Below are positions 6,006 through 63,288 of a DNA stretch of 64,000 nt, piece after piece. Each line of letters starts with the position of its first letter. Position 1 is the stretch's first letter. Source of the DNA: an uncultured Bacillota bacterium (lineage in GTDB: Bacteria > Bacillota_I > Bacilli_A > RF39 > UBA660); contig CAMUYN010000001.1 of NCBI GenBank assembly GCA_947165005.1, positions 1,963 through 65,962 on the forward strand, given 5' to 3'. The notes beneath the pieces are model-generated. The model was not told the DNA's origin, did not search any database, and was given only the letters and a program-made list of their open reading frames with translations. The position numbers and the translations under genes are program-made.

Positions 6006-6110
6006 ATTTTCACCTTTTATTTCAAAATAAAAAACACTTTCCTCGTGCTTCTGCATATAATTTAACATAAATTATATGTTTAGTCAATAGAAATAAGTGT
6101 TTTTTATATA

Positions 6111-19038: not shown

Positions 19039-19065
19039 AAAAAGAGACAAATGTCTCTTTTTTTA
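19037..19065. terminator. Bidirectional terminator between the PBP gene and the giant gene
   Basis: AAAAAAGAGAC-AAAT-GTCTCTTTTTTT lies between convergent stop codons. Confidence 0.8.
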
Positions 19066-28000: not shown

Positions 28001-31000
28001 CAATTGGAATATGTATAACCTGTTCTATTATATGCATTTGCTGTTAATGTTCCTGCAGTTCCATAAGTTAATGATTGATCGCTCATAGAACCAGATGTAG
28101 AACCATTTCCATCAAATACTACATCATAAGTATTCTTTTGCCATAATGCATATAGGTTATATGTACCATTATTTGTCTTTGTTAAATTACTTACGCTTTG
28201 TTTATCATAGTAAATTGATGTTGTAGCTCCATTAGCTAATCTAGACCATCCAATAAATGTATAACCAGTTCTTGTAAATGCATTTTGTGTTAATGCTTGA
28301 GCTACGTCATATGTAAATGATTGGTTAGACATTGTTCCGCTACCACCATTTGCATTAAATTTAACTTGGAATGTATTAGCAGTCCAATGTGCATAATATG
28401 TTTTATCTGATGCTGGAACTGGAGTACTACTTGAAATAGCATTTCCACCAGTTGCTGCATCATACCAACCAGTAAAATTATATCCTGGTTTTGTTACTGG
28501 ATCTGGAATATCTAATGTATTTCCATATACATATGGTCTAGTTATTGTTAATGTCTTATGGTTAGTAGCTGTTGTAAATGGACTAGTATCAGTTCTATTA
28601 TCTCTTGTACCGATTTTTAAAGTCTTTGTTCCTTGACCAATAATATTATATGTATCAGTCATAGATATATTAGTATTTGTTCCAGTTGCAGTAAATGTAT
28701 ATGTATGAGTACTTGCTACCCAACTAAATGAATATGTAATATCCGCATTTCTACCTACTGTAGTAGAAGATACTTGATCATATTCACCGTTACCAAGTAA
28801 TATTCTAAATTTATTTGCTGTAGTTAATTCTATATTAAGAGCCTTATCAGGATCAGTATAACTACCTATTACTAAATAACGTTTTGCATTTGTTCCATAT
28901 TTAAATACACCATTAATTGTGAAATCATTATCCCAATCAATAATATATCCAGTATCTGCTGTCTCACCACTAGCAAATGCTATTTGAACAGTATTTCTAT
29001 AATCGTATGTAATTAAATATGTATTAGCAGTAGCATTAGCTGTATATGTTTTATTTTCGTTTACTGTAATTACTGAAGATTTATCAGGAAGTATTGATGT
29101 TCCTGTCCAATTACTGAATGAATATCCAGGAACTAATGTTGCATCAATAGTTACACTTCTACCATTAATATAATTAACTGCAGATGTTGTACTTGTTCCA
29201 TTATTAGTTACATCACTAATTCCTGTTCCTTTTGTTAATGTAACACTGTATACTGTTACTGATTTTGTTCCTGCAGATGAATCACTATAGTTAGAGTTTG
29301 GTGCCTTTGCTATTACTGATACTGCTCTACTTCCTGTTGCTGCTACTATATCAGTATTTTTATTTACTCCACTTGTAGCATTTGCATAGCTTCCGTTTGC
29401 TACTTTTACTTGATGTTGTGCACTTGAACAGTTACTACTTGCTGTCCATGTTACAACTCCTGTATTTGATACTGCTACTGCTGTTGGAGTAGCACATTGT
29501 AATTTATTTACTTTAATTGTATATGTAGCAGATTTTGTTGCTCCAGTAACACTATCTGTTGCTGTTATTGTTACAGCATATCCAGTTGAATTTGCTGGTG
29601 TGTTTGCTGCTACTACTATATTTCTTCCACTTAAGCTGAAGTAATTATTTGTATTTTCTCCAGTTATAGCATATGTATAAGTTCCTGATCCATTTGTTGC
29701 TGCATTTACCCCATTAGTTATTGTTTGAGCTGCACTTGGATTATATGTACTTGATACTTCTTTATCCGCAAATGTTAATTCATTTGCTTCCCATTTAGCA
29801 TATATTACATGATCATGTGCTAAATTTACTATTGATGAACTTGTTATATATTCTTCTTGGCCTGCTGTGAAGTCATTTCCTGATGAGTTTGAATTACCAA
29901 AGAATTCTCCACTTACTAAATCATATAATCCTACTTTTCCTGTAGATTCTTCTATACATGGAATATAATCTCTTACTAATACTTCTGAATCATATATCTT
30001 AAAGCTATATACCTTTCCATTAAACATTCTTGAATCTGCTGTTCCAGCATTATTCCATGTTCCTATATAAATATTATAGAAATTAGCAAGCGTTCCTCTA
30101 TTTGAAATTGTTTGATTTACATCATCTATTTGATATATATCATTACTTAAAACTACTTTATGCTTATTTCCATCCATTGCATTAATAGTTGTTGTATAAG
30201 CATCCGACCTTGTACCAAATCCAACATATGCTGTATTTGATGTGAAGTAACCAAATACTAAACTATCTGCAGAAGAAATCCTTCTTGCTCCAAAGAATAA
30301 TTTTTTATTAACAGTTGTTGAGAATTCTGACTCAATTTTTAATGTTTGTTTTGATGGTACTCCAGTATCTATATATTGAGATTCATTAAATGTTATATAT
30401 TCTACTTGTGTATACCCTTCTGGAAGTACTGACCATCCTTTTAATGTATATCCAGTTCTTGATACAGTTGGTAATGTTCCATACGCAGATTTATATGTGG
30501 CATTCTTTGTTGATGTATTTCCTGTACCTGTCCAGCCAGTAGTTGATGAGATTGTTCCACCATTTGAACTTGCTATTACTTGATATGTTGATGGTGTCCA
30601 TTCAGCTGTTATTGTATGATTTTGTGGATTAACTACATTAGAACTAGAAGTAATATAATATGGTTCATAATCATTTATAGTTGTTCCTTCAAAAATAGAC
30701 ATTTTAATTCTATAAGTTCCAGTTACGCCATTATTTGATTGGAACCAGAAAGAACCCAAAGTGACATTAGAAAAATCTGATCTTGTTTTAAATGTTTTTA
30801 CAATCTTACCAGTAAAACCTAGTGATCCAAGATTAATTCTAGTGCTGCCACCATAATTAAGAATATAAAATCTATCGTCTGTAGCTAGGAATAGTTCTTT
30901 ATCAAAAGTATTTTCTAAAACATCGATAACCAATGTATAAGTAGTATCTGTTTTAGGAACCCATTTAGTTTTATTTAAAATTCTATCATAAACTCCAGCA

Positions 31001-32040
31001 TTTAATGTTATTTCTTCGGAGCCTTGAGTGTGAGTACTGCTTGTGAAAGTCATAGTATCTGGATTAAAGATATTGCTTCCTCTCCATCCAACAAAGTCAT
31101 AACCAGATTTTGTTGGGGTTGGTAATGTTCCATATGCATTATTGTATGTTACATCTTTTGTAGATATTGCTCCTGTACCTGTCCAGCCAGTAGTTGAAGG
31201 TATATTTCCTCCGTTTGCATCTGCTGTTACTGTTATTTGAGGAATAGTTACTGTTAATTCTTTTACTTTTCTTTCATTACTAACGTTATCAAAAGTATAT
31301 ACATGAGTAATATATACTCCGCCTTCATTATTATGATCAGAAATATTTACTCTATATGTCCATGTTCCATTTCCATTATCAGTTCCAGTATATGATGCAC
31401 TTGTTCTCCATGGTTGAAGTAAATCATCTTTTCCATTTAAACTTGTCCATGTTGGGAATTGAACTCTATTTACTCCACTAAAGTTTCCATCTGTTACTCC
31501 AGTTACTACAACATCATATCCAGTTGGAGATATATTTGTAACATATGCATCTGTTGCAGTTGGAGCATCTTTATCAAGATATGGATTTGATCCACCAACA
31601 GGTAATGTACATGTTCTTGAGTTTAAGTATGCATCTTGTAATGTTACTGTTACGCTTTCTCCATCACTCTTGATTGATGTTGTATAATCTTTTACGTCTT
31701 TAAAGTATCTTTTTGTATTTCCTGCTGCTGTTACAGTATCTACATTGATACATCCATAATCGCCTTCCATGTTATCTGTACATTCGATAAATAAAGTTTT
31801 ATCTGTATTTGTCCATGTTGTGTTTGTTCCTGGATTTATAAATTTATTTTGATTATATGCTTCTTGAGTAGTTAATGAAGAGTCTCTTAAATACCAACTT
31901 CCACAAGTTGGTGCAGTAGTGTCCTTTAATACGCTTCCTTCTCCAGTGATATTTAACTCACTATTAAAAGCCGCATATGCTACGGATATAAAAGTCAAAA
32001 GAAAAATTGTAACAAAACTTAAAGCATAATTCTTCTTCAT
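19063..32040 (-). CDS. Giant (4325 aa) secreted or surface mosaic repeat protein with Listeria-Bacteroides (Flg_new-type) repeats, BspA-type leucine-rich repeats, a GBS Bsp-like repeat and CBM-like modules
   Basis: It is a single uninterrupted ORF. The N-terminal signal/TM sequence is MKKNYALSFVTIFLLTFISVAYA. Other recognisable parts are VNRVQFPTWTSLNGKDDLL...YITHVYTFDN (Bsp-like), many GYTFxGWNT...LYAQW units, and dozens of 23-aa IPNSVTSIGxxAFxxCTGLTSIV units. There is no LPXTG and no C-terminal TM helix. Confidence 0.9.
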   Translation of the reverse strand: MKKNYALSFVTIFLLTFISVAYAAFNSELNITGEGSVLKDTTAPTCGSWYLRDSSLTTQEAYNQNKFINPGTNTTWTNTDKTLFIECTDNMEGDYGCINVDTVTAAGNTKRYFKDVKDYTTSIKSDGESVTVTLQDAYLNSRTCTLPVGGSNPYLDKDAPTATDAYVTNISPTGYDVVVTGVTDGNFSGVNRVQFPTWTSLNGKDDLLQPWRTSASYTGTDNGNGTWTYRVNISDHNNEGGVYITHVYTFDNVSNERKVKELTVTIPQITVTADANGGNIPSTTGWTGTGAISTKDVTYNNAYGTLPTPTKSGYDFVGWRGSNIFNPDTMTFTSSTHTQGSEEITLNAGVYDRILNKTKWVPKTDTTYTLVIDVLENTFDKELFLATDDRFYILNYGGSTRINLGSLGFTGKIVKTFKTRSDFSNVTLGSFWFQSNNGVTGTYRIKMSIFEGTTINDYEPYYITSSSNVVNPQNHTITAEWTPSTYQVIASSNGGTISSTTGWTGTGNTSTKNATYKSAYGTLPTVSRTGYTLKGWSVLPEGYTQVEYITFNESQYIDTGVPSKQTLKIESEFSTTVNKKLFFGARRISSADSLVFGYFTSNTAYVGFGTRSDAYTTTINAMDGNKHKVVLSNDIYQIDDVNQTISNRGTLANFYNIYIGTWNNAGTADSRMFNGKVYSFKIYDSEVLVRDYIPCIEESTGKVGLYDLVSGEFFGNSNSSGNDFTAGQEEYITSSSIVNLAHDHVIYAKWEANELTFADKEVSSTYNPSAAQTITNGVNAATNGSGTYTYAITGENTNNYFSLSGRNIVVAANTPANSTGYAVTITATDSVTGATKSATYTIKVNKLQCATPTAVAVSNTGVVTWTASSNCSSAQHQVKVANGSYANATSGVNKNTDIVAATGSRAVSVIAKAPNSNYSDSSAGTKSVTVYSVTLTKGTGISDVTNNGTSTTSAVNYINGRSVTIDATLVPGYSFSNWTGTSILPDKSSVITVNENKTYTANATANTYLITYDYRNTVQIAFASGETADTGYIIDWDNDFTINGVFKYGTNAKRYLVIGSYTDPDKALNIELTTANKFRILLGNGEYDQVSSTTVGRNADITYSFSWVASTHTYTFTATGTNTNISMTDTYNIIGQGTKTLKIGTRDNRTDTSPFTTATNHKTLTITRPYVYGNTLDIPDPVTKPGYNFTGWYDAATGGNAISSSTPVPASDKTYYAHWTANTFQVKFNANGGSGTMSNQSFTYDVAQALTQNAFTRTGYTFIGWSRLANGATTSIYYDKQSVSNLTKTNNGTYNLYALWQKNTYDVVFDGNGSTSGSMSDQSLTYGTAGTLTANAYNRTGYTYSNWNTNSLGTGVDYNNQDSMNINPNMLVGTSAPAVPSNTTSYAYSGRWAKSSTSLSPTQIDVTDAPSSLITKGFNIPSNTLSSNFYVYFNYLLVEPNQSYTVSVYAKGSGSIILRAGNSTPYREQSFTLTDTWQRYEMKVIPVTTNTAGTYNARTSGRYLNRIGVGTASGNGAVQIAGLKFEKAETATEYVDSTNKLNLHAEWITKTYTLTLDKNDGTSDGTTSITATYDSSVISPSSITLASKSYTISGFTLLSSAANAVVSSTSTLTSTATLNGYYTAASGGNLILQGNTTATYNSTSVTNYLSSGTWTRDVDTTLYAQFGAMPSKVLPTITKAGYTCGWTTNSSGTTIEYQSGGNLIPSGNTTLYGVCTLATYTVTANSSGTPIPATSGWTGTGNTATKSVTYDSAYGTLPALPTMTGYDVGWSLLPAGYTQLEYITFNGGYIDTGVLTKQSLKIETEFSATTGLAYFGARKNVNEDGLIFGEATTTAVSVAFGAETTQYATTMNLRDGNKHKLVLSNDIYQIDGVDQTISNRGPLTNFYNIYIGTWNNAGTADSSRFKGNVYSFKIYDSEVLVRDYIPCINESTGKAGLYDLVTNTFYSDATVYSFNKGPVDFITSSTIVKTPRNHDIYERAIPRSYRITLNKNDGTGMGGSGVTATYDSSVISPSYITLASKSYYISGFTLLSSATGAAVSSTSTLTSTASLNGYYTAPSGGSLILQANTTATYNNATVSGYLSNGKWARDADTTLYAQFGAMPSKVLPTITKTGYNCGWTTDSEGTTIEYQSGGNLIPSGNTRLYGVCTLATYTLTADATGGSIPSTTGWTGTGNTSTKNVTYGSAYGTLPTPTRPGYNFKGWTLDQETLPTLPSGYTQVEYIESNGTQYIDTGVAANTIYGLEYKYMPTGSSDGYQSYLSGTSDNFTLGRYVYANKAYLRYRTVEKSASLDVYTNSINTLTITSSEIRHNNETFPLTETNPIATTANNLYISNGTSSNKLSSQRIYLLKIYDQSQQLVRFLIPCIEESTGKVGLYDTVNEVFYGNAANSGEDFVSGSPIYKINGYTQIEYIESNGTQYINTGVAANTIYGLEYKYTPTGTTNDYQSYLSGTGDNFTLGRYYYLNRAYLRYRTVEKSSALTVLTSGINTLTITNDEIKHNSDTFALTETNPIATTSNNLYVSNNSSLNRYASQKIYSLKIYNQSQQLIRNYIPCINNSTGKAGLYDLVNGIFYGNANTSGNDFIAGYSKYITSSTIVTTASNHTIYANWAPISYTLNYNANGGTGTMAAEVKVYDSSFELTANAFTNDGYTFTGWNTAADGSGTSYDDTQNVVNLTTSTSVTLYAQWQVPGLYDSNNNLIKTWAELEALGLTKNTIEYNYTSSTYKTRAGSPYKVLNDNNLSGKLVLPSSITKIGNYAFYSNPRLTGIIIPSSVTTIGNYTFRNSTNLTSVSIGSGVTSIGTYAFYGCTGLTSITIPSSVTTIGNYAFQNTGLTEIIIPNSVTSIGTSAFAGCTDLTSVSIGSGVTSIGTSAFENCANLSTITVDSNNSTYDSRNNSNAIIKTSTNELIVGSKNTVIPNSVTSIGNNAFYGCTGLTSIVIPNSVTSIASTAFAYCENLVSIVIGSGVTSIGNQAFRNCANLSTITVDSNNSTYDSRNNSNAIIKTSTNELIVGSKNTVIPNSVTSIGSSAFYNCTGLTSIVIPNSVTSIGSSAFYGCTGLTSIVIPNSVTSIGGSAFAYCENLVSIVMGSGVTSIGNQAFYACAGLTSIVIPNSVTSIGNSAFRICVSLTSITIPASVKSIGTYAFSDCTSLASATFEGPNGWFTATSASATSGTDVTLTNTSQNATYLKSTYSSVYWIKPLYTVQFNANGGSGTMNNQYIGIYEETTLNVNSFTKSGYVFDCWNTAADGSGTSYEDQANVVSLANDNGVVQLYAQWALGAGLYDANGNIIKTWAELEALGLTVSSIENDYTSSNYSTTAGSPYKVLNDNNLSGKLVLPSSVTKIGDYAFYQNTKVTAIVIPRSTYYIGINAFSSCTNLAQAEFINSNNWYASSTSDGTSGTDLTLTSTSQNATYLKTTYSDKYWKRRRTYKIVYNANGGTGTMADQDVEVSSGVQLRDLNYTRNGYVFTGWNTKLNGTGTSYSNKAVITPTLSENEKLNLYAQWDYEPGLFDSNGELIKTWSELEALGLTKATVETDYTSSSYRTTAGSPYKVLNDNNLSGKLVLPSSITKIGNYAFYSNSRLTGIIIPSSVETLGTYCFYASRITSVTLSDGLKTIRQNAFYSISGLITITIPGSVTLIESRGLANYAFTTVNFKNTEGWYRSSSSSFTSETSVSFSDPAQAASELKNNYYYRTTAYKISFNANGGNGTMNSQYAAAGQTVSLSTNTFTKDNYSFIGWNTASDGSGTSYQNGASVSNLASSNQTVVLYAQWERIAGLFDSNGNIIKTWAQLEALGLTKSKIEQDYTSSNYSTTTGSPYKVFSDNNLTGKLMLPDGINKIGNYAFKNCPGLTSITIPEGINNIGAYAFDGCTSLTSADFISTSDWHASSTSDGTSGTSLTLTNTSQNATYLKTTYSDKYWKKYGYTISFNANGGSGTMDNQFVSLSEQTTLNKNTYTYILYRFAGWNTSPNGSGDAYLDEAQIYQLGTVDDNVILYAQWEYAFPPGLYDSNDNMIKTWAELEALGLTASTVEYDYTKSNSSTTAGSPYKVFYDNDLSGKLVLPSSVTKIGNCAFYENTGLTGIIIPNGVTSIGSNAFGDCENLVSIVMGSGVTSIGTDAFYGCENLSTITVDPNNSTYDSRNNSNAIINTSTNELILGSMNTIIPNTVTKIGDDAFAKRALTSIIIPNSVTTIGRYSFSACNSLTSIVIPDSVTSIGDDAFDSCANLTTVTIGSGVTSIGNAAFVGCSNLTSVTIGSGVTSIGRGAFLACSKLTSATFNDPNGWFVSTLPDATSGTDLTLTNTSDNATYLKTTYRQYYWKKSTN
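22685..22960 (-). repeat. 69-nt (23-codon) tandem LRR repeat array; two adjacent units differ by 2 nt
   Basis: Unit starts are at 22685, 22754, 22823 and 22892, with the next at 22961. By my reading, units 22823-22891 and 22892-22960 are identical except CC/TT. Confidence 0.85.
22961..23419 (-). repeat. 306-nt-period tandem duplication with about 153-nt near-identical cores
   Basis: 22961-23113 and 23267-23419 differ at 2 positions by my reading. Both encode NLSTITVDSNNSTYDSRNNSNAIIKTSTNELIVGSKNTVIPNSVTSIG. A diverged third copy lies at about 19540-19680. Confidence 0.85.
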
Positions 32041-32140: not shown

Positions 32141-32173
32141 TATAAAAAAAAGATTGATTATTTTTCAATCTTT
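32141..32173 (-). terminator. Intrinsic terminator of the noc/parB-like gene
   Basis: AAAGATTGA-N7-TCAATCTTT followed by a T-run on the minus strand. The stop codon lies in the loop. Confidence 0.75.
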
Positions 32174-33090
32174 ATTATGAACTCAAATAGCTTATCAAAT
32201 TCATAAGAATCATAGGTAGAAACATATCCTTCTTCCTTTAATTCTTCAACGAATTTCTTTATTTTTTCTTGTAAAACATCTTTTTTGTCATTGTCTGTTT
32301 CTTCATCAAGTAATAATGTTTCTTCCATTTCAATAGAAGGATTTGTTTTATCCTCAATTTCTGGATATACCTTATCTTCTATTTCAGGTATATCTTTAAA
32401 TAGATTATCAAAATCTATAGTATCACTTTTACTTGATGGACCAAGCGTTTTCCCAACACTTCTAATTGGTTCTAATTCATCAGTTTCTTTAAGGCTATCT
32501 ATTAATCTATCAGTATCTCTGACATTTAGTCTTTCTTTTATAATTGTTCTTAATAATTCTACTTGTTCTTCTTTGTCTTCTATTCTTAATAGACTTCTTG
32601 CATGTCTTTCACTAATCTCATTATTTAATAAGGCGTCTTGTACTTCATCAGATAAATTTAATAGTCTTAATTTATTAGAAATTGCTCCTTGAGTTTTGCC
32701 CATTCTAACAGCTAACTCTTCTTGAGTTAGATAACCTCTATCTAATAATTTTTTATATGATTTAGCTTCTTCTAAAGCAGATAAATCTTTTCTTTGAATA
32801 TTTTCTACAATAGCTACTTCTGCTGATTCATTATCATTTAAATCTATTACTACTGCTGGTACTTTAGTTAAACCTGCGATAAAAGACGCTTTAAATCTTC
32901 TTTCACCGGCAATTATTTCGTATTTATTACCTACTTTTCTTAAGACTAATGGTTGAATAATACCATGTTGTCTAATAGATTTTGCTAGTTCATTTAATGC
33001 ATCTTCATCAAAAGATAATCTTGGTTGAAACCTATTAGGGATTATATCATCTAAAGATACTTCAATTATTTCTTTTTCCATATTATTCAT
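32158..33090 (-). CDS. noc: ParB/Spo0J/Noc-family protein with a Noc-like recognition helix
   Basis: It contains IIPNRFQPR, QHGIIQPLVLRK and YEIIAGERRFKA (CTP-binding GERRxR box). The HTH region GKTQGAISNKLRLL...ISERHARSLL and the C-terminal end EFDKLFEFIIKIEK resemble B. subtilis Noc more than Spo0J, by comparison from memory. Confidence 0.85.
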   Translation of the reverse strand: MNNMEKEIIEVSLDDIIPNRFQPRLSFDEDALNELAKSIRQHGIIQPLVLRKVGNKYEIIAGERRFKASFIAGLTKVPAVVIDLNDNESAEVAIVENIQRKDLSALEEAKSYKKLLDRGYLTQEELAVRMGKTQGAISNKLRLLNLSDEVQDALLNNEISERHARSLLRIEDKEEQVELLRTIIKERLNVRDTDRLIDSLKETDELEPIRSVGKTLGPSSKSDTIDFDNLFKDIPEIEDKVYPEIEDKTNPSIEMEETLLLDEETDNDKKDVLQEKIKKFVEELKEEGYVSTYDSYEFDKLFEFIIKIEK

Positions 33091-36307: not shown

Positions 36308-37276
36308 TTATTTTAATATTTGCCAATGTCCTGTCTTATCTGAACCTATCCTTTCTATAATACAGTTTTCTATTAATACCTTAAAATTTCTCTTAATTGT
36401 TCTTACATTTACTCCCAATTTGTCTGCAATTTCTTGTTGAGTAATCTTATTATCATTTATTACTAATTCTATTATTTTATTTTGAATATCATTTAAAGCA
36501 AAATTACTATTCTTAATAATTTTATCTATTGATGAATTTATTATTCTTAATAAAAACTTAATAAAAATATTAGCATTATGATTTATATGACATTGAGTGA
36601 TTGATGAATAGTATTCTTCTTCATTCAAATACAGTTCTTCTTCAATAGGAATAAATTCAAAATTTTTGTGATATTTTATTAACATTAATGTAAGCCAATA
36701 TCTTGCCAATCTTCCATTACCATCAGAAAAGGGATGTATTGCTACAAAATAATAGTGAAATATTGCTGCCAATATCATTTGATTTAAAGCACTTTTTTTT
36801 ATGTATTCAAATAGGCTTTTCATTAATGATGGCACTAATATTGATTCTGGAGCAATATATATAATTACTTCTTCTTTTTTTACTCCCTCTCCATGTGTTC
36901 TATATTTTCCATTATCCTCATCAAAATATTTCATCATTATTTGTTGTACTTTTAGTAAATCTTTTTCACTTTTATAATCATATTTGCTTATATTATTATA
37001 AGCTTCCAAACCATTTTTTACTGCTTGTATTTCGTCTTTTTTACCAAGTATTTGCTTATTTTGTAATAAATTTTCAACATCAAATAAAGATATTGAAATA
37101 TCCTCAATACTAAGTGATGAATGAACAGATCTTACTCTAGCTTTAGTAACCATATATTTTCTTTTTTGTCTATCATTTATTTTTATTATGCTTAATTTAG
37201 TATTGATATTCTCTAATAAATCTTCTATTTCATCATCAATATAAAATACAGGTTCTATTTTATCAAACATATTCAT
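36308..37276 (-). CDS. Fic family protein with a C-terminal winged-HTH
   Basis: It has the canonical Fic motif HPFSDGNGRLARYW and the C-terminal region ITQQEIADKLGVNVRTIKRNFKVLIENCIIERIG. Confidence 0.88.
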   Translation of the reverse strand: MNMFDKIEPVFYIDDEIEDLLENINTKLSIIKINDRQKRKYMVTKARVRSVHSSLSIEDISISLFDVENLLQNKQILGKKDEIQAVKNGLEAYNNISKYDYKSEKDLLKVQQIMMKYFDEDNGKYRTHGEGVKKEEVIIYIAPESILVPSLMKSLFEYIKKSALNQMILAAIFHYYFVAIHPFSDGNGRLARYWLTLMLIKYHKNFEFIPIEEELYLNEEEYYSSITQCHINHNANIFIKFLLRIINSSIDKIIKNSNFALNDIQNKIIELVINDNKITQQEIADKLGVNVRTIKRNFKVLIENCIIERIGSDKTGHWQILK

Positions 37277-41998: not shown

Positions 41999-42042
41999 AG
42001 GCCTCCTATAATACAAAAAAAACCACTAAAAAAAGTGGATAA

Positions 42043-42165
42043 TTATTTAGATAAAGTTTTGCGACCTTTTTTTCTTCTACTATTTAATACATTACCTTTA
42101 ATTCTAGAAAAAAATCCATGTTTCTTCTTCATATTTCTATTGTTAGGTTGAAAAGTTCTTTTCAT
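42043..42165 (-). CDS. rpmH: 50S ribosomal protein L34
   Basis: It is not in the ORF track because it is under 60 aa. The minus strand translates to [40 protein letters not shown], with a GGAGGTG RBS. Confidence 0.93.
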
Positions 42166-42209
42166 TATATAAACACCTCCAAGTCCATAAAACATAATAG
42201 ATTATAACA

Positions 42210-42470
42210 TGTTTTTGTGGAAAGTCAAACATTTTAAATAAATAAATACAATTTATTAACAATTTTTGTGGAAAAATATTATATTTTTCATTATAATATA
42301 TAATAAAATTTAATTATCAACAGACTCCACAGAATGGTGGATAATTATAAATAGTGGATAATTAGTTGCGTATAACATAAATTTGTGGAAATTGTGGAAA
42401 AAGAGTTTTTACTATTTATTTAATTAATAATTATTGTTAATTATTTTGTGGATAACTTTTGTGGATAAAA
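42210..42470. other. oriC part 1: DnaA-box cluster upstream of dnaA
   Basis: Perfect TGTGGATAA boxes are at 42447-42455 and 42460-42468. Near-consensus boxes are TGTGGAAA(G/A/T) at 42216, 42267, 42384 and 42393; GTGGATAA at 42338 and 42354; and TTATCAACA at 42314. Confidence 0.88.
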
Positions 42471-42549
42471 AAATTGCCTGTTTTTGCTTGAAATATAAGG
42501 AAAATAAGGTATAATTAGTTATGAAAGTACCTGGGGGAAGGTGAAACAA

Positions 42550-45352: not shown

Positions 45353-45805
45353 ATGATTTCTTATGAGATTAATCGTAATACTATGGCATTAATACCAATT
45401 AATGATGATCAAACTAAAATTATAGAAAGGAATAAAATATTTATTATTAATGAAAATATTATGGAAATTATAAAAAATAGTTGTGAATTTTTTGGCAGTT
45501 CTTATTTAGGAAGAAAAGAAGGTACTAAAAAATTGACAGGTATAACACATAAAAGTCCTATAATTATAGAAGAAAGTAATAATATAATATATTTTCCAAC
45601 GGAATCACCTAGATTAAATAGCTGCTCATGGATAGGTTTTAATAATATAAAGAAATGTATTAATAATAATGGTAAAGGTACAATTATATTTGATAATGAT
45701 AAAAGTTTAGATTTAGATATATCATATAATTCTTTAGATAATCAAGTACTTAGATCATCAAAACTGGAATCAATATTACGAAAAAGATTAAATACTGCAA
45801 TTTAG
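45353..45805 (+). CDS. comK: Competence transcription factor ComK family protein
   Basis: YEINRNTMALIP, SCEFFGSSYLGRKEGT, GITHKSPIII, IYFPTESP..C.W and ISYNSLDNQV match ComK hallmarks as I recall the B. subtilis protein. Confidence 0.85.
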   Translation: MISYEINRNTMALIPINDDQTKIIERNKIFIINENIMEIIKNSCEFFGSSYLGRKEGTKKLTGITHKSPIIIEESNNIIYFPTESPRLNSCSWIGFNNIKKCINNNGKGTIIFDNDKSLDLDISYNSLDNQVLRSSKLESILRKRLNTAI

Positions 45806-48953: not shown

Positions 48954-51431
48954 ATGGATCACAGTAGAGATAGATTAGAAGAAAACAATATAGTTAATGA
49001 AATTGAAACATCCTTTCTAGAATACTCAATGAGTGTTATTGTATCTAGAGCTTTACCAGACCTAAGAGATGGTTTAAAGCCAGTTCATAGAAGAATTTTA
49101 TGGTCAATGTATGAATCTGGATATACTCCAGATAAACCTCATAAGAAATCGGCAAGAATTGTCGGTGATGTTATGGGTAAATACCATCCACATGGAGATT
49201 CTTCAATATATGAAGCAATGGTACATATGGCACAAGATTTTAGTTATAGAAACTGTTTAGTTGATGGCCATGGTAACTTTGGTAATATTGAAGGTTATGG
49301 CGCAGCAGCAATGCGTTATACTGAAGCAAGATTATCAAAAATTTCATTAGAATTATTAAGAGATATACAAAAAGAAACAGTAGATATGGTTCCAAACTTT
49401 GATGAATCAGAGAAAGAACCAGCTGTATTACCATCAAGATTTCCTAATATATTAGTTAATGGAACAATGGGTATAGCAGTAGGTATGGCTACTAATATTC
49501 CACCACATAACTTAGGAGAAGTAATTGATGGATGTGTTGCATATATAGATAATCCTAATATAGATGTTCTAGGATTGATGCAATATATTAAAGGACCAGA
49601 CTTTCCAACAGGTGGAATAATCCTTGGTAATAGTGGTATTAAAAAGGCCTATGAAACAGGAAGAGGTTCTATTACTATAAGAAGTAAGGCTACTATTGAA
49701 GAAACTGATGGAAAACATCAAATAATTATTGATGAAGTTCCATATGGAGTAAATACTTCAACATTAAAAAATAAAGTAGCAGAATTAGTACATAATAAAG
49801 TAATTGATGGCATATCTGATTACCATACTGACTTAAAAGATGGTGTTAAGATAACAATTACTTTAAAGAAAGATGCTAATGCACAAGTAGTATTAAATAA
49901 TTTATATAAACATACAGATTTCCAAACAAATTTTGGTATTATCTTCCTAATGCTAGATAAAGGTGTACCAAAAACACTTGGATTAAAAGATATAATTGCT
50001 AAATATATAGATTATCAAAAAGAAATAATTATTAGAAGAACTAGATATGATCTTAAAAAAGCACAAGATAGAGTACATATATTAGAAGGATTAAAGATAG
50101 CTCTTGATCATATAGATGAAGTAATTAAACTAATCAGAGGTTCTAAGACAGATGACATTGCTAGAGAAGGATTAATGAAACAATTTGGTTTAACAGAAAT
50201 CCAAGCAAACGCTATTCTAGAAATGAAGTTAAGAAGATTAACTGGATTAGAAAGAGAAAAGATTGAAGAAGAATTATCTGAATTATTAAAGAAAATTGAG
50301 GAATATAATGCTATTCTTGCTAGTGAAGAAAAAGTATTAGCTATAATCAAGGAAGAATTATTAGATATTAAGAATAGATATTCTGATGAAAGAAGAACTA
50401 AGATTGATATGACTGCTATAGATTTCATCGAAGATGAATCATTAATACCAGTTGAGGATATAATTATTAACTTAACTAATAAAGGTTATATTAAGAGATT
50501 ACCAATTGATACTTACAAAGTACAAAACAAAGGTGGAGTAGGTGTTAAAGGTATGCAAACTCAAGAAGAAGACTTTGTTACTAAGATGGTTACATTAAAG
50601 ACTCATGATCATGTATTATTCTTTACTAATAAAGGTAAAGTATATAGAATTAAAGGTTATGAAGTACCAGAATTTAGTAGACAAGCTAAAGGATTACCAA
50701 TAATTAATCTATTACCAATCGAAAAAGATGAATATGTAAGAGAAATTCTTCCGGTTCAAGCTGATGATAGTGTTAAAGATAAATTAATTACATTTGTTAC
50801 AAAGAAAGGTATAGTTAAGAGAACAAATATCTCTGAATTTGAAAATATAAGAGTAACTGGTAAAATAGCTATAACTTTAAAAGAAAATGATGAATTATTA
50901 TCAGTATTCTTAACAGATGGTAACCAACAAATCTTAATCGGTGCATCAAATGGTAGAATGGTTAAGTTCAACGAAGATGAGATAAGAATCTTAGGTAGAA
51001 CTGCAAGTGGTGTTAAGGGTATAGATATACCAGAAGAAATTAATTGCGTAAGTGCAGATGTTATTACTGAAGATGATGAAATACTTATAATTACAGAGAA
51101 TGGTTATGGCAAAAGAACAAATGTTCGTGAATATAGATTAACTCACAGAGGTAGTAAAGGTGTTAAAGGATTAAACGTTACTGAAAAGAATGGCCCATTA
51201 ATATCAATAAGTAAGGTTGAAGATGATTCAGACTTAATTATAATTACTAATTCAGGTATAGTTATAAGAATTCCACTAGATCAAGTATCTAAAATGAGTA
51301 GAGTAACTCAAGGAGTTAGATTAATAACATTAAAAGATAATCAAAAAGTAGCTACAGTTTCTATATCGAAAAAAGAAGTAGAAACAGAAAATACTGAAGA
51401 AACACAGCAAGAATCATCAACTGAAGAATAA
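48954..51431 (+). CDS. gyrA: DNA gyrase subunit A
   Basis: It contains [28 protein letters not shown] and [10 protein letters not shown], plus C-terminal beta-pinwheel repeats. Confidence 0.97.
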
Positions 51432-51441
51432 TATTAAACAA

Positions 51442-51457
51442 TGTTTCACGTGAAACA
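51442..51457. promoter_or_regulatory. parS site A (perfect TGTTTCACGTGAAACA)
   Basis: It is an exact 16-mer, embedded in a 26-bp perfect palindrome at 51437-51462, followed by a T-run (terminator-like) after gyrA. Confidence 0.85.
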
Positions 51458-51476
51458 TTGTTTTTTTACTAAAAAA

Positions 51477-51492
51477 TATTTCCCGGGAAATA
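51477..51492. promoter_or_regulatory. NBS-type palindrome A (perfect TATTTCCCGGGAAATA)
   Basis: It is an exact 16-mer within the 28-bp palindrome AAAAAATATTTCCCGGGAAATATTTTTT at 51471-51498. It matches the Noc-binding site consensus as I recall it. Confidence 0.7.
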
Positions 51493-51551
51493 TTTTTTTT
51501 GATAATTTTTATTATTTATGATATATTTAATGTGAAACTGGTGATAAAAAT

Positions 51552-52094
51552 ATGAAAAATTACAAAGAATTAGGTTTTGATAGTGAATATGAGATGAATT
51601 TATATCATGACGTATGTTGTGAAATGAATTATGTAATAGAATTTTCATCATTTCAAGATCTACTAAACTATTTAGAAACTAATAATATAAAGAATATAAA
51701 GAATCAGCAAACAAAAAGTCAATGTAATACATTTATAAGAAAAAATAATTTATTAGAACTATTAATGGAAGTGGAAGAACAACCATTAGTTAATAGATAT
51801 ATAGAATTATATAAATATCATGCCAATTTCTATTCTATATCAAGTAATGTTATCAAACTTAATGGAATCTTACTTACAAATGCAATAAAAAGTAAAAATG
51901 ATGAACAAGCTAATTTTTACAAAGCAGAAATAAGCAGAACATTAGATATAGCAGAAGTTCACCTACGTTGCCTAACATATATTGTTGAACAAGTATATGA
52001 TAAAGTACCACTTGATTCATATCAATTTATTAAAGGAATTGAATATGTACAAAGTGAAGTATTTAAGGATAATGGTAACTTTGGTTTGAGTTAA
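51552..52094 (+). CDS. Hypothetical protein (180 aa, predicted helical)
   Basis: The ORF has a GGTGA RBS and a TTGATA-17 nt-TATATT promoter abutting NBS A. No family recognised. Confidence 0.55.
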   Translation: MKNYKELGFDSEYEMNLYHDVCCEMNYVIEFSSFQDLLNYLETNNIKNIKNQQTKSQCNTFIRKNNLLELLMEVEEQPLVNRYIELYKYHANFYSISSNVIKLNGILLTNAIKSKNDEQANFYKAEISRTLDIAEVHLRCLTYIVEQVYDKVPLDSYQFIKGIEYVQSEVFKDNGNFGLS

Positions 52095-52097
52095 AAA

Positions 52098-52113
52098 TAT
52101 TTCCCGGGAAATA
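52098..52113. promoter_or_regulatory. NBS-type palindrome B (perfect TATTTCCCGGGAAATA)
   Basis: It is an exact 16-mer 4 nt after the stop codon of the 180-aa ORF. Confidence 0.7.
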
Positions 52114-52122
52114 TTTTTTATA

Positions 52123-52138
52123 TGTTTCACGTGAAACA
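52123..52138. promoter_or_regulatory. parS site B (perfect TGTTTCACGTGAAACA)
   Basis: It is an exact 16-mer 9 nt after NBS B. Confidence 0.85.
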
Positions 52139-52183
52139 TTAATATGAATTGACTTTTTAAATAAAATAAAGTATATTAATATT

Positions 52184-52254
52184 GCACAACGGAGAACTTG
52201 GAATCAGGTCAGGATAGAAATATAGCAGCCTTAACATTTAATTTCCGTGTGTGC
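52184..52254 (+). ncRNA. ffs: Signal recognition particle RNA, small (4.5S-like) type
   Basis: GGTCAGG-ATA-GAAA-TAT-AGCAGCC reproduces the SRP domain IV core (E. coli GGUCAGG-UCC-GGAA-GGA-AGCAGCC). The closing helix pairs GCACAACGGAGAA with TTTCCGTGTGTGC. A TTGACT-17 nt-TATATT promoter is at 52149-52177 and a T-run terminator at 52256-52263. The position upstream of tadA/dnaX matches Bacillus. Confidence 0.88.
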
Positions 52255-52273
52255 ATTTTTTTTGGAGTAAAAT

Positions 52274-52669
52274 ATGGACGTAATTGCAGAATTAAATAAA
52301 CTTATGGATATAGCTATTAAGAAAAATGAAGTTCCAGTAGCGTGTATCATTACAAAAAATAATAAAATAATAGCAAAAGCATATAATAAAACAAATAAAT
52401 CTAATAATATATTAGATCATGCAGAAATAATTTCAATCATCAAGGCTTCAAAAAAGATAAACAATTGGAGATTAAATGATTGTATAATGTATATTTCATT
52501 AGAACCATGTTCTATGTGCAAGGAAGTTATTAAAAAGTCTAGAATTAAGAAAGTAATATATTTTTCAAAGCAAAATGGGCATAAAACCGAATCTGATATT
52601 GATTATGAATATATAAATAATGATAAAATATCAAATAAATTATCGAATTTTTTTAAAGGTATTAGATAA
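52274..52669 (+). CDS. tadA: tRNA adenosine(34) deaminase TadA (short form)
   Basis: It contains VPVACIIT, HAEIISI and PCSMCKEVI (zinc-binding CDA motifs). Confidence 0.88.
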   Translation: MDVIAELNKLMDIAIKKNEVPVACIITKNNKIIAKAYNKTNKSNNILDHAEIISIIKASKKINNWRLNDCIMYISLEPCSMCKEVIKKSRIKKVIYFSKQNGHKTESDIDYEYINNDKISNKLSNFFKGIR

Positions 52670-52676
52670 ACAGTAA

Positions 52677-52692
52677 TGTTTCACGTGAAACA
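52677..52692. promoter_or_regulatory. parS site C (perfect TGTTTCACGTGAAACA)
   Basis: It is an exact 16-mer within a 30-bp perfect palindrome at 52670-52699, directly after tadA. Confidence 0.85.
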
Positions 52693-52714
52693 TTACTGTT
52701 TTAATATTCAAAAA

Positions 52715-52730
52715 TATTTCCCGGGAAATA
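52715..52730. promoter_or_regulatory. NBS-type palindrome C (perfect TATTTCCCGGGAAATA)
   Basis: It is an exact 16-mer. It is followed by TTTTTGATA, as copy A is. Confidence 0.7.
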
Positions 52731-52832
52731 TTTTTTTGATATCTATAACAAAAAAATATGAGATTTTCACAATTATTTACTTAATCTATATAGGTAAATG
52801 TGTTATAATTATTAGGGAAAGGAAAGATAAAT

Positions 52833-54482
52833 ATGATATATCAAGCTTTATACAGAAAATATAGACCAAAGACATTTGATGATGTTTGTGGTCAAGAAAT
52901 AATTACTACAACTTTGAAGAATGCAATTAAATATAATAAGTTAACACATGCATATCTATTTATTGGACCTAGGGGTACTGGTAAAACAAGTATTGCAAAA
53001 ATATTTGCTAAAACAATTAACTGTGAATCAAATAAAGATGGAGTTTCTTGTGAAAAATGCGATATTTGTAAAATGAGCAATAATAATGAGAATGTTGATA
53101 TTATTGAAATGGATGCAGCTTCTAACAATGGCGTAGATGAAGTGAGAGAAATTAAAAATCACGTTACATATATGCCAACATTCTCAAAATATAAAGTATA
53201 TATTATAGATGAAGTTCATATGTTATCTGCAGGTGCTTTTAATGCACTGCTTAAAACATTGGAAGAACCACCAAAACATGTGATCTTTATATTAGCTACA
53301 ACAGAACCACAAAAAGTCCCTTTAACTATAATCTCTAGATGCCAATGCTTTGAATTTAAATCTATACCAAATAATTTAATAGAGGATAGAATTAAATATA
53401 TATGTAAGGAAGAAAAAATAAAAATATCTGATGAATCAATTAAACAAATAGGAGAAGATTCAAACGGTGGATTAAGAGATGCAATTGGCCTATTAGATCA
53501 ATTGAATTCATACACTAACGGAAATATTAATTTAGAGGATGTTCTTAAGATAAATGGTAGAGTTAATCAAGATACATTTAAAAATATATTCGATTATATA
53601 ATAAATAATAATATAGAAGAATTATTTAATTTAAGTGACAAATTTAATTCTGAAGGAAAAGATTTTGTATTAATTTGTGAAGATTTAATTAAGTATCTAA
53701 AAGATTCACTTATTGAATACCAAATTAATAATGAAAATGAGTTGGTAGGGCAACTGGGAAAAGAAAAAGTAACAAAGATAATATTCGAGGTTAGTGATTA
53801 TATCGGTCGTATGCGAAATATTAGAGAAAAAAAAATATTTTTTGATTTATTATTAATAAAGATAGGTAGTATTATAAATACAAATGTTCGTGTTGAAGAA
53901 TCTAAACCTATTTTAATAGAAAAAAAAGAAGAAATTAAAGAAATCAAAAATAATGAGTCTAAAATAGAAGCACAAAAAGAAGAAATTAAAAAAACAGCAC
54001 ATATAATGGATGAGAAATATATTAAATATAATGAATTAATGAAAATAAGATTAAACAATATATTAGCTCAAGCAGATAGAAACTCCCTAAAGAGTTATTT
54101 AGAATTCATCAATAATCTAGAAGCAAACCTAGATAATCTAGAGGAAAGACAAATATATAATTTATTATTGGATTGTGAAATAGTTGCTGGATCCAGTGAT
54201 GGTTTAGTTATTACAACTGACTCTAAAATTTTACTAGAAGAATTATATGACAATCTATCTAATATTGAAAATTTAATTAGCAATAAGTTAAATACAAATA
54301 TACATGCATGTTTTAATTTAAATGATGATTGGATAAAAACAAGTGAAGTATATAGAAAAAAGATAAGAAATAAAGAAAAAATTGAATTATTAGATGAATC
54401 AGAAATATTAAAGAGTATACTTGATACAAATGAAGTTAAGAAAAATGAATTTGAAGATTTATTGGAGATAGGAGAAATGTAA
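52833..54482 (+). CDS. dnaX: DNA polymerase III subunits gamma/tau
   Basis: It contains YRKYRPKTFDDVCGQE, GPRGTGKTS, a C-x-C zinc module and IIDEVHMLS. Confidence 0.95.
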   Translation: MIYQALYRKYRPKTFDDVCGQEIITTTLKNAIKYNKLTHAYLFIGPRGTGKTSIAKIFAKTINCESNKDGVSCEKCDICKMSNNNENVDIIEMDAASNNGVDEVREIKNHVTYMPTFSKYKVYIIDEVHMLSAGAFNALLKTLEEPPKHVIFILATTEPQKVPLTIISRCQCFEFKSIPNNLIEDRIKYICKEEKIKISDESIKQIGEDSNGGLRDAIGLLDQLNSYTNGNINLEDVLKINGRVNQDTFKNIFDYIINNNIEELFNLSDKFNSEGKDFVLICEDLIKYLKDSLIEYQINNENELVGQLGKEKVTKIIFEVSDYIGRMRNIREKKIFFDLLLIKIGSIINTNVRVEESKPILIEKKEEIKEIKNNESKIEAQKEEIKKTAHIMDEKYIKYNELMKIRLNNILAQADRNSLKSYLEFINNLEANLDNLEERQIYNLLLDCEIVAGSSDGLVITTDSKILLEELYDNLSNIENLISNKLNTNIHACFNLNDDWIKTSEVYRKKIRNKEKIELLDESEILKSILDTNEVKKNEFEDLLEIGEM

Positions 54483-62775: not shown

Positions 62776-63288
62776 ATGAATGATCTATCTATTATTAAAA
62801 AAATTGACAACCTAGGGAGAATAATAATACCCAAAGAGATAAGAAGAAAATTAAATATCAGTATAGATGATGATCTAAAAATAACTCTATTAAAAGAAAA
62901 TATTATTATTTCCAAATATAGTTTACTTTCTGAAATAGATAATAAAATAATTGCATATGGAAGAATAGTAAATAAGATTACTAATAAGAATATAATTATT
63001 ACGGACAAGGATAAAATTATATATTCGAATAATATAAACTATTTAAATAAAGAAATATCTGACTCATTAAAAAAATATCTATATCAAAGATTAGAATTAG
63101 ATAAAAAAATGGATTTAGAATTAATAAAAAACATAAATATAGATAATAATTATTATATAAAACCAATAATTATAAACAGTGATACACTAGGAATAGTTAT
63201 ACTATATAGCACCAATTCTATTAATGATAAAGATAAAATCCTTATTAATCTAATAATTAGTATAATTGAAGAGTATTTTAATAACTAG
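62776..63288 (+). CDS. spoVT: Stage V sporulation protein T-like regulator (AbrB/SpoVT domain + GAF-like C-terminus)
   Basis: It contains IDNLGRIIIPKEIRRKLNI and lies immediately after mfd, as in Bacillus. Confidence 0.75.
   Translation: MNDLSIIKKIDNLGRIIIPKEIRRKLNISIDDDLKITLLKENIIISKYSLLSEIDNKIIAYGRIVNKITNKNIIITDKDKIIYSNNINYLNKEISDSLKKYLYQRLELDKKMDLELIKNINIDNNYYIKPIIINSDTLGIVILYSTNSINDKDKILINLIISIIEEYFNN

Follow-up and report, generated by a model that had tools for sequence, protein, structure and literature searches.

The three parS sites and three Noc-binding sites (NBS) found between gyrA and dnaX in the window (the whole 64-kb stretch of DNA analysed here) belong to an arrangement whose sites multiply as parS+NBS units, separate into two discrete classes and keep a helically phased spacing. 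We regard it as somewhat more probable than otherwise that these six palindromes represent, in this genome, a centromere-like region close to the origin that is shared across the lineage and on which two ParB-family clamps load. Such a region would occupy the intergenic gaps separating gyrA, the ffs-tadA island and dnaX, and two kinds of ParB-family loading site would be kept adjacent within it.

Both the parS 16-mer TGTTTCACGTGAAACA and the NBS 16-mer TATTTCCCGGGAAATA occur three times in the window without mismatch, and the six sites are the six longest perfect palindromes of its 64 kb. When up to three mismatches were allowed, one further parS match was found (three mismatches, position 43080), against 0.27 ± 0.51 matches in the shuffled window, and no further NBS match was found in the 64 kb. 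The original prediction gave all six sites at their exact coordinates, with correct distances and gene context (pair 1 after gyrA, pair 2 after ORF180, pair 3 after tadA). The two consensus sequences on which it relied both agree with the crystallisation oligos of Jalal et al. 2020 (parS GATGTTTCACGTGAAACATC, NBS GGATATTTCCCGGGAAATATCC; PMC7383237), a paper that cites Livny et al. 2007 for the Firmicute parS consensus TGTTTCACGTGAAACA. The sites and their surroundings are as follows.

32158..33090, minus strand: ParB-family protein of 310 aa, the predicted NBS reader, whose gene follows rsmG and lies 19 kb from the sites
42017..42540, no strand: oriC region between rnpA and dnaA, where the GC skew switches and 8 DnaA boxes lie (at most 1 mismatch)
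48954..51431, plus strand: gyrA, conserved left border of the site cluster in relatives, stop at 51431
51442..51457, no strand: parS-1, within a 28-bp perfect palindrome (51436-51463), 5 bp past the gyrA stop and followed by T7
51477..51492, no strand: NBS-1, within a 28-bp palindrome (51471-51498) with A6/T6 flanks, 35 bp centre to centre from parS-1
51552..52094, plus strand: ORF180, an orphan ORF peculiar to this genome, where it divides the gap between gyrA and ffs, stop at 52094
52098..52113, no strand: NBS-2, within a 26-bp palindrome (52093-52118), immediately 3' of the ORF180 stop
52123..52138, no strand: parS-2, within an 18-bp palindrome (52122-52139), 25 bp centre to centre from NBS-2 and just upstream of a promoter-like site of ffs
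52173..52270, plus strand: ffs (SRP RNA gene), which with tadA forms a conserved island between the two site-bearing gaps
52274-52669: tadA, the other part of this island, stop at 52669
52677..52692, no strand: parS-3, within a 34-bp perfect palindrome (52668-52701) that overlaps the tadA stop region
52715..52730, no strand: NBS-3, within a 26-bp palindrome (52710-52735), 38 bp from parS-3 (centre to centre), with dnaX about 100 bp downstream
52833..54482, plus strand: dnaX, conserved right border of the site cluster

With the DnaA-box cluster and the GC-skew switch at 42.0-42.5 kb, the sites lie 9-10.3 kb further right and are thus origin-proximal. Pair 2 sits between the ORF180 stop (52094) and ffs (52173), and pair 3 between the tadA stop (52669) and the dnaX start (52833). 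ORF180 was considered as a site-binding factor and rejected, since a comparison with 5.8 billion proteins gave no homologue of this orphan and the relatives do not have it; it is outside the conserved system.

A scan of species-representative genomes, with one parS-NBS pair at 19-49 bp as the entry condition, returned at least 120 loci in at least 117 related assemblies, all of them low-GC uncultured gut Bacilli. Every locus listed carries genes of the gyrB-gyrA-tadA-dnaX-recR block (gyrA in at least 102, tadA in at least 101 and dnaX in at least 93 among the matches listed), with GyrA identities to the window of 54 to 88%. The same pairing was found at the same syntenic place in all of these loci, often as alternating arrays. 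Among the matches listed, the gap between gyrA and tadA holds at least 284 parS and 164 NBS and that between tadA and dnaX at least 49 parS and 44 NBS; almost all sites are intergenic, and single loci reach maxima of 10 parS and 13 NBS. Many of the listed arrays are strictly alternating and tandem, with species-specific spacers. In two tandem arrays with unrelated spacers, 83 bp x 13 and 75 bp x 8.8, each unit combines a single parS with a single NBS. In at least 19 relatives an NBS lies inside the dnaX coding sequence, within its variable linker, which argues for selection at the DNA level; the window's own dnaX has no such extra NBS.

The physical coupling of parS and NBS, as had been supposed, is far above chance; it recurs in every listed locus. 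The doublet had also been taken as fixed, and this did not hold: the number, order and spacing of sites differ even among close relatives, and it is the helical phase that is constrained. Some relatives have 8-9 parS and merely 1-2 NBS, so that a strict 1:1 platform is not required. Beyond the cluster, no parS or NBS was found in about 110 kb of origin-region sequence (the window, its flanks L123 and L124, and 21 kb around the noc-like gene of relative L122), and no parS-NBS doublets were found in viral contigs. Our search of the searchable literature returned no description of the paired arrangement.

Sites of the form TNTTTCNCGNGAAANA among the matches listed comprise at least 339 pure parS, at least 309 pure NBS, 7 others and no parS/NBS hybrids (655 in total). 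The 16-bp cores are invariant across the listed loci, while flanks and spacers turn over. Heterotypic neighbours account for 445 of 647 cases among the matches listed, against 356 ± 11 by label permutation, an excess that is inflated, as are the phasing statistics, because entry needed one parS-NBS pair at 19-49 bp and because related species and tandem copies are non-independent. Centre distances between parS and NBS are most frequent near 26-27, 35-36 and 45-49 bp, values that correspond to half-integer helical turns, with troughs at 30 and 41-44 bp that fall within the 19-49 bp ascertainment range. A periodicity of 10-11.5 bp, subject to the same inflation, was obtained with p <= 0.0002 both after per-locus de-duplication and after clustering of the spacers into 174 families.

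The protein encoded after rsmG has ParB_N and HTH_ParB domains (PF02195, PF17762; E ~ 1e-33), an acidic linker and then a small C-terminal domain. Its GERRFKA motif is present, GERR(F/Y)KA and ENIQR are conserved, and the CTP-binding motifs are intact. The best PDB matches are the Noc entries 7NG0 and 7NFU, with 209 bits against 173 for Spo0J. According to Jalal 2020, NBS specificity is conferred by Q173 and R201 together with K179 or K184, and R173 was invariable among the parS binders of their deep mutational scan (PMC7383237). The specificity residues here are Q173/K179/N184/R201; QKNR occurs in 119 of 120 orthologues, and Q173 with R201 in 150 of 150 representative clusters. From its sequence the protein is thus predicted to have NBS-type specificity and to be the NBS reader, and its presence 19 kb from the sites is consistent with the ParB-family clamps originally envisaged.

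The NBS reader is not a classical Noc. The N-terminal amphipathic membrane-targeting helix of about 10 aa, required for Noc function in B. subtilis (Adams 2015, PMC4331003; Jalal 2021, PMC8429893), is missing from the protein, which starts with MNNMEKEIIEV and has 16-17 residues ahead of PNRFQPR, a motif preceded by 39 residues in B. subtilis Noc; no upstream extension of the ORF is possible. The NCBIfam model TIGR04285 scores 274.6 bits, below its curated cut-off of 315, and is covered over positions 1-198 of 255. In the family, the acidic linker is variable and lengths range from 227 to 821 aa. The AlphaFold model is of moderate confidence (pLDDT 63). The noc-like gene adjoins rsmG directly in L122, while in the window a 181-aa ORF without family match, missing in L122, intervenes upstream of it. 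Lacking the membrane-targeting helix, the protein is less likely to act in nucleoid occlusion than as an adaptor or as a second organiser of the origin domain.

From -47 to +32 kb around oriC (about 80 kb), beside the noc-like gene of L122 and in the related loci listed (at least 120), searches for a parS-type ParB (R173/G201) and for ParA/Soj found neither. In phmmer searches with the window protein and with Spo0J and Noc of B. subtilis as queries, the six-frame ORFs of the window and L001-L124 yielded the noc-like gene alone; a Pfam search of 40 window ORFs revealed no ParA, and extension past the window via its edge proteins, leftward by 5 kb and rightward by 10 kb, added no ParB or ParA. 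The canonical rsmG-noc-soj-spo0J position is occupied by the noc-like gene alone. A metagenome scan with an AT-biased back-translation of the Spo0J HTH (GKSR..[IV].N..RLL.L) gave, among the 120 loci listed, mostly marine sequences, plus Clostridium-like soj-spo0J-DUF4446-yyaC contigs and a noc-less soj-spo0J group. Similarity in tetranucleotides and codon usage assigned none of these loci to the lineage of the window, because both measures are dominated by AT bias. The most promising candidate, a soj-spo0J locus in a non-origin context (L178), was rejected, as it belongs to Tissierella. In a paper on gene content in RF39, RFN20 and ML615J-28, no treatment of spo0J, soj or parB was found. Of the two ParB-family clamps that had been proposed, an NBS-type protein is thus encoded, whereas a parS-type ParB was not found in the approximately 80 kb read. 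Since none turned up around oriC or in the loci listed, the second reader is one that we infer.

The arrangement can be explained if a Noc-like dimer that has nucleated on NBS closes into a CTP clamp and then slides away, and if a separate R173-type ParB/Spo0J, which would be encoded outside the sequence read, acts likewise on parS. With centres about 2.5, 3.5 and 4.5 helical turns apart, the two dimers would sit on opposite faces of the DNA, so that both sites could be occupied together even with 9-11 bp between their edges. Together, the two proteins may form one mixed nucleoprotein complex about 10 kb from oriC, and the longest parS palindromes, directly after gyrA and tadA, may also terminate transcription. 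The composite platform for two clamps suggested at the outset is borne out as far as the sites are genuine, coupled and of two classes; the fixed doublet is not, and the second clamp was not found.

Three other readings were weighed against the two-clamp loading region. That the sites share a place without functional coupling seems unlikely, although it is the strongest of the three: a ParB-type and a Noc-like protein would use their own sites, both kinds would gather in the few origin-proximal gaps of a gene-dense, AT-rich genome, and tandem duplication would copy them. The strong variation in site number, order and ratio (3+3 in the window against 9 parS + 2 NBS in its closest relative, L110) agrees with this, as do the clear expansion of arrays by tandem duplication with species-specific spacers and the isolated sites outside arrays, at least 33 NBS against at least 6 parS among the matches listed. 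Yet helical phasing persists over the 174 unrelated spacer families, heterotypic neighbours exceed the permutation expectation, the pairing is the same in every listed locus despite the divergence in GyrA, and the roughly 110 kb of origin-region sequence holds no NBS or parS elsewhere. Rather improbable is a single Noc-like protein that recognises both palindromes in a lineage without canonical ParB. Only one ParB-family gene lies in the 80 kb around oriC, none was found in the related loci listed, soj-spo0J is missing at its usual place after noc, and dual-specificity ParB variants are possible in principle, 82 of them having been recovered in the Jalal 2020 scan (PMC7383237). In those dual binders residue 201 was mostly T or S, and the parS binders always had R173 (PMC7383237), whereas Q173 and R201 are invariant in the family considered here; moreover, a promiscuous protein should tolerate hybrid half-sites, which are absent from all 655 sites. 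The use of both sites by one protein, an alternative in the original prediction, is therefore disfavoured.

Least probable is that the palindromes are structural hairpins only, terminators or a REP-like element whose likeness to parS and NBS has no protein-binding meaning. Some of the hairpins do have terminator properties: the parS-1 RNA hairpin (-12.5 kcal/mol, z = -4.6), directly after gyrA and followed by U7, was flagged as terminator-like, and that of parS-3 (-18.1 kcal/mol, z = -5.7), directly after tadA, has a weaker U-run. Likewise, parS flanks covary at positions ±2 to ±6 so as to lengthen the palindrome (complementarity 0.46-0.61 against an expected 0.33-0.47), and extension by at least 4 bp is seen in 53% of the first sites after a gene against 34% overall. 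On the other hand, the NBS hairpins do not exceed shuffled sequence in stability (z about -1.2 to -1.5; NBS-1, -7.6 kcal/mol, z = -1.5, not significant), and a stable stem-loop with a U-run at a gene 3' end is lacking in all three NBS hairpins and in parS-2. Where as many as 23 sites crowd into 1 kb, not every one can be a terminator, NBS lie within the dnaX ORF in many species, and the 16-bp cores remain invariant while the flanks change. The other terminators of the window have sequences unrelated to these palindromes, which form a family at one locus only in the roughly 110 kb of origin-region sequence. A REP-like family with variable cores had been named beforehand as the outcome contrary to the loading platform; it fails on the invariant cores, the varying flanks and the single locus. 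A dispersed palindromic repeat of REP type was rejected for the same invariance, for the lack of extra copies in the window or L122-L124, and because other window hairpins are unrelated. Hairpins as the sole explanation are largely refuted. The original reading of the palindromes as terminators stands for parS-1 and parS-3, which probably double as such, and not for the NBS hairpins.

The loading region for two clamps can be compared with several known systems. Firmicutes normally encode ParB and Soj near oriC, and here the cognate R173-type ParB and Soj were not found there. As in B. subtilis and other Firmicutes, the parS sites are identical 16-bp palindromes in multiple copies within about 10 kb of oriC, with the presumed role of nucleating CTP-dependent ParB clamps and organising the origin domain. 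They differ from Firmicute parS in being intergenic, tightly clustered, each with an NBS partner, and tandemly amplified in relatives. Many parS sites near oriC are also known from Streptomyces, Corynebacterium and Myxococcus, and iterated repeats from plasmid centromeres, but such arrays are known as homotypic, each made of a single site type for a single reader. The region described here resembles them in its many close loading sites within a short origin-proximal stretch and in a copy number that varies between relatives; unlike in them, two site types for two paralogous specificities alternate, helically phased.

The Noc-NBS nucleoid occlusion system is reportedly the subject of Wu et al. 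2009. With the system of B. subtilis and S. aureus (PMC4331003, PMC8429893), the present one shares an identical NBS 16-mer, Q173/K179/R201, the GERR CTP motif and the gene position after rsmG, and its protein is the nearest sequence relative of the Noc crystal structures. In contrast to those Noc proteins, it has no N-terminal helix, falls below the NCBIfam Noc cut-off and has a variable acidic linker, and its NBS, in the roughly 110 kb of origin-region sequence, are concentrated beside parS near oriC, whereas those of B. subtilis are scattered round the chromosome. Helix-less Noc-like paralogues with QK(K/R)R residues and a short N-terminus (e.g. MEDKKVMEIPIENIVPNPYQPR) also occur in the Clostridia-like contigs L207, L158 and L161, where they are distinct from the RTNG-type Spo0J on the same contig. 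Unlike the gene in the window, these paralogues adjoin soj and spo0J; they are distant from the window protein (about 174 bits against 460-640 for its orthologues), and no parS or NBS sites were found in these contig fragments.

We tentatively propose, with less than even confidence, that this clade of gut Bacilli replaced the classical layout, in which ParB acts at origin parS and membrane-bound Noc at scattered NBS, by a two-clamp centromere. Its sites, alternating and helically phased, would be loaded by a Noc-type paralogue without the helix and by a parS reader, and the two would work as a single heterotypic complex for partition and organisation; at the extreme, the clade would have no canonical ParB/Soj and parS would be read by something new. 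An orthogonal, tightly spaced natural site pair of this kind is relevant to dual-colour ParB/Noc DNA-labelling tools (PMC11109969).

If the two-clamp reading is true, the region would represent a second evolutionary use of NBS specificity. ParB and Noc are textbook paralogous CTP-switch DNA clamps with separate sites and jobs, ParB serving origin segregation and SMC loading, and Noc nucleoid occlusion at the membrane. The occurrence of side-by-side, co-amplified, helically phased parS and NBS in well over a hundred species suggests that both proteins serve one chromosome-organising region. On the same condition, the region would offer a natural system for studying whether two sliding clamps divide a loading region between them, obstruct each other there or cooperate, and a compact sequence signature by which the centromere and origin may be located in uncultured low-GC Bacilli.

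All three parS and all three NBS 16-mers of the original prediction were found as exact copies in the window. Both consensus sequences of that prediction were right: in the crystal structures of Jalal et al. 2020 (PMC7383237), the parS duplex contains exactly TGTTTCACGTGAAACA and the NBS duplex exactly TATTTCCCGGGAAATA. At up to three mismatches, the window holds one further parS match (three mismatches; shuffled sequences give ~0.3 matches) and no further NBS match. Extended to 34, 28, 28, 26, 26 and 18 bp, the sites take the first six places by length among perfect palindromes of the 64-kb window. The features considered here are the following.

51442, 52123 and 52677: parS, TGTTTCACGTGAAACA, three exact copies
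51477, 52098 and 52715: NBS, TATTTCCCGGGAAATA, three exact copies
51552-52094, + strand: ORF180, an orphan ORF between pairs 1 and 2
32158-33090, - strand: noc-like gene, encoding a ParB-family protein of 310 aa with ParB_N and HTH_ParB domains

The GC skew switches at ~42 kb and eight DnaA boxes are clustered at 42034-42468, upstream of dnaA, which together with the gene order places the sites 9-10.3 kb from oriC, in agreement with the predicted origin proximity. To the right of oriC lie dnaA, dnaN, comK, recF, gyrB, gyrA, pair 1, ORF180, pair 2, the SRP RNA gene (ffs), tadA, pair 3, dnaX and recR. The comK homologue (45353-45805, +) occupies a slot between dnaN and recF that is conserved in relatives covering that region. 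ORF180 matches nothing but itself among 5.8 billion proteins and has no counterpart in the gyrA-tadA gap of any relative; its extended -10 promoter-like site is at 51499-51527. To the left of oriC lie rnpA, yidC, jag, mnmE, gpsA, a Fic protein gene, mnmG, rsmG, a 181-aa ORF, the noc-like gene, which is the single ParB-family gene of the window, and a 4325-aa surface-protein gene. This last ORF (19063-32040, -; BspA-type LRR, Flg_new and GBS_Bsp repeats; GC ~0.32 vs 0.25 in its surroundings) is an insertion immediately downstream of the noc-like gene; L122, the corresponding ~21 kb of a relative, has a PBP gene there and a 7562-aa repeat protein further on. The Fic-domain protein (36308-37276, -), with a C-terminal winged HTH, lies between mnmG and gpsA, a slot taken in L122 by a sigma-70 family gene (6107-7336). 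Sporulation genes (SpoIIR, SpoVG, YabP, SpoIID, SpoVT-like and a YabG-type peptidase) surround oriC in the lineage (L122, the window flank L124 and window 62776-63288), despite the closed chromosome of one relative being only 1.31 Mb (OZ006981.1).

The pairing is real and extends beyond the window. Searching one genome per species with the pattern parS(14)-N5-35-NBS(14) recovered at least 120 loci with a parS-NBS pair in the same gyrA-dnaX neighbourhood, nearly all recorded as uncultured gut Bacilli, Erysipelotrichaceae, 'Mycoplasma', Tenericutes or Clostridium sp. CAG:710. Among the 120 loci listed, most have a GC content of 23-31%, one is on the closed 1.31 Mb chromosome OZ006981.1, and all carry genes of the gyrB-gyrA-tadA-dnaX-recR block (gyrA 102, tadA 101, dnaX 93), with identities to the window of 54-88% for GyrA and only ~35-80% for DnaX. 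In these loci the gyrA-tadA gap holds 284 parS and 164 NBS, and the tadA-dnaX gap 49 and 44; ffs lies immediately upstream of tadA in 17 of 18 loci tested. Viral contigs showed no comparable doublets. A dispersed REP-like repeat family is ruled out by this lineage-wide synteny at one gene block and by the absence from viral contigs; the three pairs of the window represent a conserved region on a small scale. IS200/IS605 TnpA-type ORFs are inserted within the region in two species (L034 2681-2986; L073 5331-5816).

Contrary to the fixed doublet that had been proposed, parS-NBS centre distances vary. Among the loci listed, neighbouring distances cluster at 26-27, 35-36 and 45-49 bp, leaving troughs at 30 and 41-44 bp; the window spacings of 25, 35 and 38 bp match the first two of these peaks. 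The distances have a 10-11.5 bp periodicity (p <= 0.0002 vs a uniform null), which survives when a distance is allowed only one count per locus and when the spacers are clustered into 174 sequence families. The loci share ancestry and were each ascertained by one pair at 19-49 bp, but that range includes the troughs, and the spacers share no sequence relationship. With a preferred phase of d mod 10.5 ~4.7, equal to half-integer helical turns, the parS and NBS dyads lie on opposite DNA faces.

Loci listed hold up to 10 parS and 13 NBS. In many, the two site types alternate strictly in a tandem array (83 bp x 13 copies in L094, the OZ006981.1 locus; 75 bp x 8.8 in L060), whose unit has one parS-like site and one NBS, with spacers unrelated between species. 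Heterotypic neighbours number 445 of 647 vs 356 +/- 11 with labels permuted within loci, a significance that is an upper bound because tandem copies are non-independent. Sites of the form TNTTTCNCGNGAAANA in the 120 loci comprise 339 pure parS, 309 pure NBS and seven single variants, with no hybrids. NBS flanks are conserved A/T tracts, and parS flanks are variable, covarying to lengthen the palindrome. In L110, the closest relative of the window among these loci, five parS follow the first pair with an exact 37-bp period (2700-2900); parS can therefore also be amplified on its own, and the set of sites changes fast.

The sites had also been read as terminator hairpins. This is plausible for parS-1 (-12.5 kcal/mol, z = -4.6, with U7 behind it) as terminator of gyrA and for parS-3 (-18.1 kcal/mol, z = -5.7) as terminator of tadA, but not for parS-2 and the three NBS, whose hairpins are indistinguishable in stability from shuffled sequence. 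Of 103 loci, 78 have a site no more than 120 bp from the gyrA stop, and the palindromes of these first sites are longer than average. Some parS copies thus likely have termination as a secondary role, which does not by itself explain the system. In at least 19 related species (L006, L010, L015, L019, L020, L024, L026 and others) an exact NBS lies within the dnaX coding sequence, at about codon 350-400, although none does in the window (dnaX, 52833-54482). It translates as (I/N)ISREI(I/F) in a linker with no other conservation; the peptide thus appears to be set by the DNA site. Its retention there points to selection on DNA rather than on an RNA hairpin or peptide.

The nearest structures to the noc-like protein by sequence are Noc of Geobacillus (209 bits) and of B. 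subtilis (187 bits), compared with 173 bits for Spo0J. Its score is below the NCBIfam Noc cut-off. At the four positions that Jalal et al. 2020 (PMC7383237) found to set specificity, it has Q173, K179, N184 and R201; in their work NBS specificity takes Q173, R201 and a lysine at 179 or 184, and R173 is retained in all parS-specific variants. Of 120 orthologues, 119 have QKNR. The family is very large (227-821 aa, owing to a variable linker), and all 150 clusters taken to represent it have Q173 and R201. Membrane binding by Noc requires a 10-aa amphipathic N-terminal helix, which is absent from the short N-terminus of the window protein (MNNMEKEIIEV...), an ORF not extendable upstream. Judging from its residues and N-terminus, the protein would be Noc-like in DNA specificity but probably not Noc in the functional sense. 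The missing helix is not unique to this lineage: Clostridia-like metagenome contigs (L207, L158, L161 and L174; GC ~0.29-0.30) likewise encode a helix-less Noc-type paralogue, with QKRR or QKKR, but there it adjoins soj and an RTNG-type spo0J, neighbours that the window does not have.

Neither an R173-type (parS-reading) ParB nor a ParA turned up between -47 and +32 kb relative to oriC, up to 10 kb from the L122 noc-like gene or in the 120 loci listed. Metagenome candidates for the Spo0J of the lineage were rejected as marine, Clostridium-like, noc-less Bacilli or Tissierella. The 120 loci keep 339 perfect parS, and the one ParB-family protein seen has Q173; we therefore infer that parS has its own reader, encoded elsewhere. 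The literature searched, in which ParB-parS and Noc-NBS are studied separately, yielded no description of natural pairing; the two systems have been used together in engineered DNA labelling. A composite model with two clamps, as first suggested, is moderately favoured, one of them being the putative parS reader. Conserved and origin-proximal, the parS/NBS cluster is a centromere-like region in which interleaved sites are helically phased, and it is probably coupled to a helix-less Noc-type clamp.
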